From IMG/VR virus record IMGVR_UViG_2534682078_000009: 10,083 bases of DNA. One strand, 5' to 3'. Position 1 is the first letter of the stretch; every line of letters starts with the position of its first letter. Source of the stretch: a virus. Lineage: Duplodnaviria > Heunggongvirae > Uroviricota > Caudoviricetes. The position numbers were made by a program. Shown piece after piece: positions 1 through 3,000 of this stretch.

Positions 1-3000
1 CGGTAGTTTTCCTCTGTAGGTTATCAACACATCCTGCGCCTCTAAATGATGGGCCGCTTTTCCGGCAACGGACCATCCCCTTCACATAACCCGGCAGCAA
101 CATCCATGAAAAACTGCTTCGCCTGCTTTTTCGCCTCAGCTTCGTAAAACTCCAGCGTGGCACCTTCAGTACGGTCAAGACTAATCGCCACATCTGGCAA
201 CAACAGTGACGGATACCCACCAATTTCCAGTGCCACAGTAACAGTAATCTTATCCGGGTAATTATTTATCCCTTTAACAACCAGTTCGTATTTTTTCTTC
301 ATCGCTTTACTCTCCCCGCGCCGCCTTACGCTTATCTTCTTTAATCTTGAAATAAAGATTTGTCAGATACGTCAGCAGGCCAAACAGCAGACTTACCCAG
401 CACACCTATTGCCACCCACTGGGACGAGAGCTTTGTCCAGCAGCTGCAGTAACCAGTATCCCGTCCCCACCGCTGACGTGGTGTATGACACACCTGTTGT
501 GATTTTTTCCATCTGATGTATGTCTCCGTCACCGCCGACAGAAAATGAAAGTAAAGAAAAACAAAAAAGCCGCCAGTGTCACCCACTGACGGCCAACGCC
601 GGGAGCCGTGATTATGGCATTCAGGCTCTGCTAAAAATGCCAGATAACATTCCGGCCTCCCCTGATTCAGGTTATAAATGACACAATATCTTGACAACAT
701 CCGTCACTGTCTGTCAGAAAATGTACTGCCATATAGAAGCAACATGTGAAGTACATCTATCCTTTTGAGCCAGCACCTCTCCACCGAAAGTCAGTGCTGG
801 CTGTTTTTTTCCTTAATAAGGCATCTGTAACTGAAACAATCCGCATATTGATAATATATTGACAGGCATCATTGCTGTCTGTGAAAAATAAGTCTCTACA
901 AACATATAAGGCCTTTTAGCCAGCGTCTTCTTTTTCAGGTCAGTCGCTGGCTTTTTTTATTATGCTGCCGGTGCATTTATCTCCAGCATCAGACTTTCTA
1001 TCTCAACGCCATACGCTGCATTTTTTGTAACATCCGTCAGCGTCAGCGCATTCAGTCCCAGTGTCAGACTGTCTTTTATAACCTGGAATGCCGGGCCAGC
1101 CACTCCATTCAGTTTCGGAGTAACCGTGGCACTGCCGGCGGTGAACACCAGCTCCAGCGTCTGCCAGTCGTTACCGTAATCGCCGAACTCCCCCAGCTTC
1201 GTGTTTCCGGCTTTCCTGTGATGCATCAGATTCACTCTGCCGTCAGTGGTCTGAGTGAAGTACGACATCAGGAACGGATTACCGGTACCCGTCATCGCCA
1301 CACCATCAGGAACGGGAGCATCCGTATACAGATAAATCCCCAGCCCGAACTGATTGTTGGTCAGTGCGCCTGACAGGCGGAACTTACAGGTCTGTCTGCC
1401 GCCCTGTGTCAGCAGGGTAATTGCGTCATCCACCGGATGCGTCAGGGACCAGGTTTTATTGCTCTGCTTGGTGATCTTAAATACACCATCTGACAACTGA
1501 ATTCCGCCATCCTTAATGCTCCAGCCCTGCGCAGCAGCCTCTCCGGCTGCCGGCAGCAGGGAGATTGTGCGAACGGACGTATCTGCAGACGGACCCGATG
1601 GCGTGTTGCCGCCGGGCGAGGGTTTGATTTCCGGTGCCTTACCACTGATGAAGGCTGAGGTGCGCCCGGCTGCGTTCAGAATAGCGGTTGCCAGACGATC
1701 CGGAATAATGCTCCTGCGCGCCCATGAACTGAAATGTGTCGGGCGGTTTGATGATACCTGGTTTCCATTCGTTCTCGATGCCGCACCGTAATATCCTGAT
1801 GCCGGAATATCCGGATCTTCTGCCGGCGCGTTAGTGGCGGTATTGACGCCGTTACCGTCTGTCATGAAGGGCACAAAATAAACGCCCTCACTCTCCCTGT
1901 TTTTATACCCGCCGTACACGGTGTCGTACTGGGTAGCGTATGTATTTTTCCAGTAATACGTCGTGTCACCACAAACCCACGGCACATCTGCAGCACTGCC
2001 ACCATGGCACTGCGCGTTAAACACGGAGAGGTCAGCACGAAACTGTGTCAGCATGGCTGTAAACAGCGCAGGTTGCTGTACGTGGGTGGCGGCGCTCATG
2101 TCAAACTCACCCTGCATCCAGCAGACGGCCAGCAGAACGTTTTTGGGATTTTTCTGCAATGCCGCTTTTGTGCGGGAAATCAGATCCTGATATAACGGCT
2201 TGCCCACCCCCCAGCGTGCCGAATCCTGACTGGCCCCCGTGGACTCGCTGAATGTCCCCTCCGCGCCCTGGGTAAATGCCGAACCACCACGACAGCATGG
2301 TACCAGCAGGATCCCCGCGTTATTCGGGATATACGGGAGCAGTTTTTTGGCAATATGTAAACCCTGGCCGACACAGCCGTACTGCCCTTTGCTCAGGTCA
2401 GCCCTCGGATGATTCAGCGTACTCATATCCTGCACATCATGCAGACAGTGGTCAGCCGGAATAATATCGTTATATCTGCAGGCAGCCCCGCCCGGCGTCA
2501 CTGTACTGCGGCGCGCCAGCTGTTTAATGCGCGGATCCGGAGCATCGTATGAATCCGGCAGCGGAAGCCCTTCACCGTAAGCCATGGCATTGGATTGCCC
2601 GGCCAGTACGATGACGTAGTACCAATCCGGCTCAGATGAAGGGCCGACCTGTGGCTCTCCTTCAATAGCCACCGCCTGCATCAGTGTGTACGGCGTAATG
2701 GCAACCGGTCCGCCGTATGGCTGCCAGCCCTCTTTCAGTTTGTGTGTCAGCTTTTCCGCAAGGTCTGACGGCGACGCCGCCCTGACAACATCGTAATGTT
2801 TAATCGACATCGAATTTCTCCCGTGTAGAGGAACAGAGTTAAAAAGCCGGAAGCGGAATCAAATCACAGGATGACCATCTGCCAGTGGCAGGTCATAAAA
2901 AAAAGGCTGCGCAATGCGCAGCCAGAACTCACAAGGAAAATGATAAAAGGAATAACACTAGTGATGTACGCATGGCGCCTCCCGCTAAGTTCTGCAATGA

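Follow-up and report, generated by a model that had tools for sequence, protein, structure and literature searches.

The esterase-holin spacer of a lambdoid prophage carries pasA and, in tandem, a probable second Hfq-associated small RNA gene

Pearl Mizrahi et al. 2021 described five prophage small RNAs (sRNAs) of enteropathogenic Escherichia coli (EPEC) strain E2348/69 (PMC8550237), and one of them, PasA, bears directly on the locus studied here. The major form of PasA is 85 nt long (NC_011601 743499-743415, minus strand), and a minor form of 236 nt shares its 5' end and stops at 743264 (Table S6, PMC8550237). In E2348/69, PasA gives a northern blot signal of the predicted size and depends on Hfq for its stability (PMC8550237). 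In EPEC RIL-seq, in which interacting RNAs are ligated and sequenced, PasA has 41 partners, ranks 12th by partner number and occupies the RNA2 position in 94-100% of its chimeras, with 4983 chimeric fragments under activating and 116 under non-activating conditions. A later survey reports the gene order esterase-PasA-holin-lysozyme, with PasD beyond the esterase gene, ~2170 bp off (Zhu, Shabalina & Storz 2026, bioRxiv 10.64898/2026.05.13.724894). Here we analyze a 10,083-nt stretch of viral DNA (IMG/VR record IMGVR_UViG_2534682078_000009; its full length is referred to as the window). An earlier note on this stretch had pointed out two repeated units on the plus strand, unit 1 (691-810) and unit 2 (859-958), as candidate prophage sRNA genes.

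Several other systems resemble this locus in part. In enterohemorrhagic E. coli (EHEC) O157:H7 Sakai, Tree et al. 2014 used Hfq crosslinking and analysis of cDNA (Hfq-CRAC) and catalogued EcOnc51 (2237479-2237555, plus strand, prophage Sp12) and EcOnc52 (1181998-1182075, minus strand, prophage Sp4), each with a predicted terminator (PMC4104026). Both have been cited as EHEC homologues of PasA (Table S6 of PMC8550237). AgvB and AsxR (RF02702, RF02703) are likewise short Hfq-bound RNAs of lambdoid prophages; they are encoded in the moron zone of the late region and run opposite to the late operon, and their 3' modules are conserved while their 5' ends vary. They differ in position, with the moron (stx) gene on one side and the esterase gene on the other. 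The RF02702 and RF02703 models have no match at the gathering score in the window and none at E <= 10 in 500-1100. HnrS (EcOnc10/11/12, 66 nt), which represses hha (Poudyal et al. 2026, PMC13502914), resembles unit 2 in its size, in being Hfq-bound and in being multicopy in LEE-positive E. coli (LEE, locus of enterocyte effacement), where it belongs to the prophage late region. We considered HnrS as an identity for unit 2 because of its ~66-nt size and its copy number, and rejected it, as EcOnc10/11/12 occupy a different locus, ~3.2 kb away in Sp12 and beyond the lysis genes. EcOnc15 was also rejected as a family member, being located between Q and stx1A. Outside prophages, OmrA/OmrB of E. coli and PrrF1/PrrF2 of Pseudomonas are likewise adjacent, same-strand paralogous sRNA genes, in which each gene has a promoter-like element as well as a terminator. 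The PrrF1-PrrF2 pair also yields a long read-through form, PrrH. Compared with these pairs, the units here are far more diverged in their bodies, phage-borne and multi-copy, and the second promoter is putative.

Unit 1 can be matched directly to a published locus. Positions 500-1000 of the window are 100% identical to prophage PP2 of EPEC E2348/69, so the published PasA coordinates map to 726-810 of the plus strand for the major 85-nt form, and to 726-961 for the minor 236-nt isoform, which reads through the first terminator to that of unit 2. The complement of the published northern probe GCCAGCACTGACTTTCGGTGGAGAG has an exact match at 777-801. The gene order also agrees: the esterase gene (960-2810) and the holin start codon (512) lie on the opposite strand, and a PasD2-type gene follows beyond the esterase, ~2170 bp from PasA, as in the 2026 survey. 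By this identity and synteny, we assign unit 1 to pasA itself, an already-catalogued Hfq-dependent sRNA gene of lambdoid prophages.

The elements of unit 1 fit this assignment. Its -35 hexamer TTGACA (691-696) is invariant in all variants that keep unit 1, and the published PasA 5' end, 726, lies exactly 30 nt downstream of it. The published 5' end of PasC has the same distance to its TTGACA, and this spacing fits a primary start. The motif CTGTCTGT (707-714) is part of an extended -10-like element (707-720), with TG at 712-713 and CAGAAA at 715-720 after an 18-nt spacer. From the perfect -35 and the TG-extended weak -10 (TGtCAGAAA), we infer that 726 is a primary start. At the 3' side, an Hfq-binding module with an intrinsic terminator (761-810) consists of CCTTTT (761-766), a 9-bp stem in which AGCCAGCAC (768-776) pairs with GTGCTGGCT (794-802), a G, and seven T (804-810). 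The stem is supported by folding and covariation, as it is 100% paired over nine distinct PasA/PasC variants of the unit 1 type, with compensatory changes in three of the nine pairs. The fold of full-length PasA has -18.8 kcal/mol and z = -1.3, which alone is not significant. The proposed PasA seed, GCCAGCACCU (769-778), is located in the 5' arm of the terminator (fig. S5 of PMC8550237).

Unit 2 starts 168 nt after the start of unit 1 on the same strand and repeats its architecture. The -35 hexamer TTGACA (859-864) is followed by CTGTCTGT (875-882) within an extended -10-like element (875-888), with TG at 880-881 and GAAAAA at 883-888. Reading the CTGTCTGT elements of both units as extended -10 elements of promoters is our interpretation. 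The Hfq-binding module and intrinsic terminator (912-958) contain CCTTTT (912-917), an 8-bp stem of AGCCAGCG (918-925) paired with CGCTGGCT (945-952), and a U-tail up to 958; the T-run comprises seven T (952-958), the first of which doubles as the last base of the stem. Both terminators have an AGCCAGC...GCTGGCT hairpin. The predicted RNA of unit 2, ~65 nt (894-958), is supported by the EcOnc51/EcOnc52 peaks, a covariance model, RIL-seq and its fold (-16.5 kcal/mol, z = -3.5 against shuffled sequences). The unit 2 -35 is invariant in all tandem variants and in all variants truncated by insertion sequences (IS).

Every listed element of the two promoter-plus-terminator units noticed earlier is therefore present, and two of the details need correction. 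The note had placed CTGTCTGT about 17 nt after TTGACA; the motif is there, and from the first base of TTGACA to its own first base it is 16 nt, leaving a gap of 10 nt in both units. It had also given both units a body of roughly 50 nt, and the body of unit 2 is much shorter, with ~24 nt of 5' single strand vs ~42 nt in unit 1. The remaining points agree with our data. The T-run exists on the plus strand only, as the hairpins on the minus strand are followed by CAAAAGG or TAAAAGG. No plus-strand open reading frame (ORF) of at least 40 aa is found within 691-958, only chance ORFs of up to 38 aa. Both units converge on nanS-p, the esterase gene on the minus strand, and are antisense to late read-through.

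The similarity of the two units is not due to chance, as judged by shuffle tests. The window contains the pattern TTGACA-N10-CTGTCTGT two times, and none of 200 shuffles contains it. The colinear global alignment of the units scores 59, a value reached by none of 2000 dinucleotide shuffles (12.2 +/- 4.3; z ~11). We further searched the window with a covariance model built from nine PasA/PasA-2/PasC variants, from which unit 2 was left out. PasA scores 94.6 bits and unit 2 (879-958) 32.1 bits with E ~1.6e-5, and nothing else on that strand is significant, the next match having E > 1. Much of the unit 2 score comes from the terminator module. The match indicates that unit 2 is a diverged tandem paralog in the PasA/PasC family, in agreement with the paralogy proposed earlier. 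Unit 2 shares with this family the promoter architecture, the CCUUUU-hairpin-U7 module and a PasC-type stem (AGCCAGCG/CGCUGGCU); it differs in having another, much shorter 5' body and another loop, and has never been named as a member. PasC loci hold one unit, in contrast to the tandem here. We regard it as partly shown that the PasA/PasC family has in unit 2 a shorter and diverged member, in tandem with pasA.

The published survey comes to another view. It searched by BLAST with the five E2348/69 sequences and explicitly held that the pasA copies are not tandem duplicates, and unit 2 is not listed there as a Pas sRNA (bioRxiv 10.64898/2026.05.13.724894). Since the best local match between the units is 20 nt, their similarity is too patchy for BLAST, and surveys based on it missed unit 2.

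The RNA of unit 2 has been recovered before, under other names. Using RNase E crosslinking, ligation and sequencing of hybrids (RNase E-CLASH) reads that carry both sequence and coordinates (Waters et al., PMC5286369), we derived the shift between the old Sakai assembly and NC_002695.2, which is +136 nt in the Sp12 region and +1 nt in that of Sp4. Raw coordinates on NC_002695.2 would make EcOnc51 correspond to unit 1; the +136 shift rules this out and moves it to unit 2. EcOnc coordinates of Tree 2014 or Waters 2017 that are used raw on NC_002695.2 thus mis-assign closely spaced features. After correction, both EcOnc peaks read (AA)GTCTCTACAAACATATAAGGCCTTTTAGCCAGCG...GCTGGCTCTTTTTTTATTATGCT, which is unit 2, so that by coordinates they cover unit 2 and not the 85-nt PasA. 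The peaks begin with AAGTCTC or GTCTC, equal to window positions 890 and 892, and end just past the T-run (~890-965 and 892-970). The start predicted from the unit 2 -35 is 894, near these edges at 890/892. The Sakai copies of unit 2 lack 2 nt of the loop and have an inserted CT in the 3' arm; otherwise they are identical to the window. In Sp12, the Hfq-CRAC catalogue has a peak at unit 2 and none at unit 1. In Sp4, unit 1 is gone because IS629 sits there, 21 nt upstream of the unit 2 -35.

The EPEC data contain the same region as the RIL-seq entry 'pasA.E2348C_0688.IGR', which behaves in the manner of an sRNA: it has five partners, a U-tract of 7 and the RNA2 position in 100% of fragments. 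Its chimera with escD maps to 931-958, in the sRNA position. The entry accounts for 119 chimeric fragments when conditions are activating and for 54 when they are not, so the ratio of unit 2 to PasA chimeras goes from 0.024 to 0.47, a ~20-fold change. Simple proportional read-through from pasA does not predict such a change, which hints, though indirectly, at separate control of unit 2. Taken with the CRAC peaks, these data partly show that unit 2 accumulates as a discrete Hfq-bound RNA of ~65-70 nt, which in EHEC is EcOnc51/EcOnc52. The read-through transcript contains unit 2 as its tail, and in addition unit 2 most likely has a promoter of its own, judging from the perfect -35, the extended -10-like element and the pasA-like spacing.

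On these grounds, we consider it highly probable that the locus holds two tandem paralogous Hfq-associated sRNA genes, transcribed rightward on the plus strand and opposite to the late operon. That unit 2 is in addition an overlooked third PasA/PasC family member, promoted and regulated separately and having a seed and targets of its own, is a claim towards which we lean only slightly. A doubtful but serious alternative holds that there is one gene, pasA, and that unit 2 is a decayed duplicate with a silent promoter-like motif; the RNA at 890-960 would then be the tail of the 236-nt form or a processed, Hfq-protected fragment. The EPEC authors indeed treat the unit 2 region as a minor long isoform of PasA and not as a separate gene, merging it into PasA in Table S6, where the 85-nt and 236-nt forms share their 5' end (PMC8550237). 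An RNase E-CLASH hybrid fragment spans 869-894, the promoter region of unit 2, which means that read-through RNA is present in EHEC too. As Hfq protects terminator-proximal fragments, the 3' hairpin should give a CRAC peak either way. On the other hand, the CRAC 5' edges do not trail upstream but fall, at 890/892, where a perfect and invariant -35 predicts the start; the chimera ratio shifts between growth conditions; the Hfq peak in Sakai Sp12 lies at unit 2 and not at unit 1; and the unit 2 promoter stays intact in the IS-truncated loci. To another alternative, in which the units are non-transcribed repeats or bare terminators that block stray plus-strand transcription into nanS-p antisense, we give almost no credence. 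The record of phage 434 (OL657226.1) carries only 'terminator' features at both hairpins, and RefSeq has no annotation at the units, but northern blots, RNA-seq, RIL-seq and CRAC on identical or near-identical sequence recover abundant Hfq-bound RNAs. For unit 1, this alternative is refuted by the published northern and RIL-seq data.

Further points weigh against two expressed and separately promoted genes. The -10 elements of both units are weak. A consensus scan for promoters and terminators called neither promoter and, of the unit 2 terminator, only a sub-hairpin; with loops of more than 8 nt and weak -10 elements, most of the units escape it. The EcOnc51/EcOnc52 peaks passed in only three of five data sets, and both RNAs are catalogued only, without northern blot, Hfq-stability test or target (PMC4104026). 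The Sp12 and Sp4 copies of unit 2 are identical, so multi-mapped reads could account for the Sp4 peak, which is no proof of expression independent of unit 1. Zhu, Shabalina & Storz 2026 regard the PasA 5' end as cleaved from a longer transcript (bioRxiv 10.64898/2026.05.13.724894), contrary to the primary start at 726 preferred here. The Hfq dependence and target pairing of PasA are known from E2348/69, and its expression in the strain of the window is assumed; the prophage of the window may itself be defective, as its holin gene is frameshifted. Finally, regulatory action of PasA and of unit 2 on any target is a proposal.

Identity to the validated locus shows that the primary product of pasA is the 85-nt RNA (726-810), ending at its own terminator, and that a minority of transcripts read through to the second terminator and give the 236-nt form. 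With two sRNA genes as the preferred reading, the locus could work as follows. The U-rich stretch, the GC hairpin and the 3' poly-U tail would load each RNA on Hfq. The CCUUUU-hairpin-U7 arrangement is reportedly the standard Hfq-binding module of enterobacterial sRNAs, known from the work of Otaka, Ishikawa and Aiba. Tree et al. 2014 make the same point (PMC4104026). The variable 5' body, and in PasA also the terminator 5' arm with GCCAGCACCU, may then base-pair in trans with mRNAs encoded by the core genome or by virulence islands; the RIL-seq partners of PasA in EPEC include LEE and bfp transcripts. We take this as the best-supported model: published data establish expression and Hfq association for PasA and largely do so for unit 2, and target pairing is backed by chimeras. 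When unit 2 and PasA were compared by RNAduplex with the RIL-seq partner escD, the predicted pairing was no better than that of shuffled sRNAs, which makes the comparison uninformative. Neither PasA nor the unit 2 region has any sRNA among its partners in the published EPEC RIL-seq, so a sponge role like that of AgvB/AsxR is not supported. For the same reason, we dropped an anti-sRNA reading of unit 2, which had been considered since its ACAAACA resembles a GcvB-R1 target.

The geometry of the locus invites a different role, in which both RNAs act mainly in cis, pairing with any late-operon or nanS-p transcript that continues from the esterase gene into the holin gene, to which they are complementary over their full length, e.g. 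via RNase III cleavage. Such pairing would uncouple the esterase from lysis-gene expression, or reduce leaky expression of lysis genes in lysogens. Both units converge on nanS-p and oppose its read-through as antisense, PasA forms RIL-seq chimeras with the 3' ends of the esterase mRNAs E2348C_0688 and E2348C_1246, and opposite-strand RNA from the pasA-holin spacer was recovered in RIL-seq. A strong minus-strand terminator (594 to 568) between the units and the holin gene makes an esterase 3' untranslated region (UTR) over both units plausible. However, 36 of the 41 PasA partners are coding sequences or 5' UTRs elsewhere in the genome, and the esterase contact site given by the authors (~982-992) falls outside the antisense overlap. 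A main role in cis is thus unlikely in our view. It could coexist with trans action, and we treat it as secondary, its support being faint.

Our analysis confirms what the earlier note observed and supports its interpretation, and the finding was already known. The note had suggested prophage sRNAs of the Hfq type, which is borne out by published experiments on identical or near-identical sequence, and could not say whether they match named ones; unit 1 corresponds to PasA and unit 2 to EcOnc51/EcOnc52. The proposed Rfam check returned no family for PasA, PasC or EcOnc51/52. In the whole window, no Rfam family reaches its gathering score, and 500-1100 gives only chance-level matches at E <= 10. 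What is new lies at the margin: EcOnc51/52 are unit 2, unit 2 is a tandem PasA/PasC paralog, and it may have its own promoter. If unit 2 is indeed a separately promoted and regulated family member, the esterase-holin spacer of ~2300 prophage copies encodes two sRNAs and not one, the published statement that pasA is not tandemly duplicated needs revision, and the EHEC 'PasA homologues' EcOnc51/52 are the second RNA. In practice, both units can now be labelled. We regard the result as a rediscovery with a small refinement, without a new kind of biology.

The locus is widespread in E. coli. Among 5426 complete E. coli genomes, unit 1 is found at 2857 places in 692 genomes; for unit 2 together with its spacer, the figures are 2306 places and 677 genomes. 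The locus is thus present in ~13% of them, usually in 3-4 copies. RefSeq, GenBank and Rfam have no RNA gene annotated at these places. Among sequenced phages, the tandem is carried mostly by Stx1a-converting phages. The classical lambdoid phage 434 (Paris sewer, 1950s; OL657226.1, 2388-2690) also contains PasA and unit 2 at 100% identity, adjoining an esterase gene and a pinholin gene, and its record marks the hairpins only as terminators. As phage 434 carries both, these 'pathogenicity-associated' sRNAs are not confined to prophages of pathogens.

Across IMG/VR prophage contigs and reference genomes, we distinguish several forms of the spacer. About two dozen loci have the tandem. A second form has a single PasC-type unit, combining a promoter and body of the unit 1 type with a unit-2-like terminator beside the esterase stop. 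A third has a single unit with a PasA-like terminator that carries a compensatory C-G to U-A change (locus L081). In the fourth, IS-truncated loci keep unit 2 alone. We notice that 5' bodies and terminators are exchanged among the variants, a PasA body being joined to the terminator of PasC and a PasA-2 body to that of PasA, which suggests modular recombination at the shared TTT(G/T)AGCCAGC repeat. Unit 2 is almost invariant except for indels in the loop and the T-run. Three loci (L004, which is Sakai Sp4, L121 and L100) show at least two different insertions or rearrangements near one point, equivalent to ~833-838. These fall past the terminator of PasA and ahead of the unit 2 promoter, leaving the promoter and RNA of unit 2 intact.

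The minus strand of the window is the late region of a lambdoid prophage of the Shiga-toxin-phage type. In the late direction, i.e. with falling coordinates, antiterminator Q comes first, followed by a membrane-protein moron, a DUF3927 gene, nanS-p, a 447-bp spacer, a class II holin gene and a DUF1327 gene, and both repeated units sit on the plus strand of the nanS-p/holin spacer, opposite to the late genes. The nanS-p gene (960-2810, minus strand) encodes a sialate O-acetylesterase (DUF1737 + SASA + DUF6645), as assigned from its ORF, Pfam and the way RefSeq annotates identical loci, and it ends with a stop codon directly beside the unit 2 terminator. The PasA-complementary motif CUGAUGCUGGA, reported by the RIL-seq authors in the esterase mRNAs E2348C_0688 and E2348C_1246, corresponds to 982-992 on the minus strand at the 3' end of nanS-p, 20-30 nt upstream of the stop codon and beside the unit 2 terminator. 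Just upstream of nanS-p lies the PasD2-type sRNA gene (EcOnc13 / STnc100-like; 2897-3068, minus strand). The published PasD probe matches it at 2913-2936 with a single mismatch, as reported for PasD2, and the Rfam STnc100 model stays below its gathering score there.

Two terminator-like hairpins are located on the minus strand between the sRNA units and the holin start, at 558-594 and 639-656. The hairpin at 558-594 is strong, with an 11-bp stem, seven GC pairs and a T-run, and its site is annotated as 'terminator' in phage 434. It could end a nanS-p transcript with a 3' UTR fully antisense to both sRNAs and, in lysogens, could serve to insulate the genes for lysis.

The class II holin gene (306-512, minus strand, start codon at 512) is known from the annotation of E2348/69 and E2863. 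Relative to E2348/69, it has two 1-nt deletions and one 1-nt insertion in the window, and its translation stops after 39 codons. The frameshift means either that the prophage is lysis-defective or that the assembly contains indel errors. After the holin gene comes the DUF1327 gene at 42-302, where E2348/69 has an RrrD lysozyme gene. Positions 319-7452 are 99.58% identical to PP2 of E2348/69, whereas 1-318 and 7453-10083 differ; with such flanks, the window represents a mosaic relative and not E2348/69 itself.

On plasmids, ~100 places match only 811-893, the part formed by the spacer and the unit 2 promoter. On plasmid NZ_AP042517.1 (locus L130), the match at 2501-2583 lies between IS elements, ~1.75 kb from remnant holin and lysozyme genes, and looks like an IS-flanked fragment of a decayed prophage lysis region.

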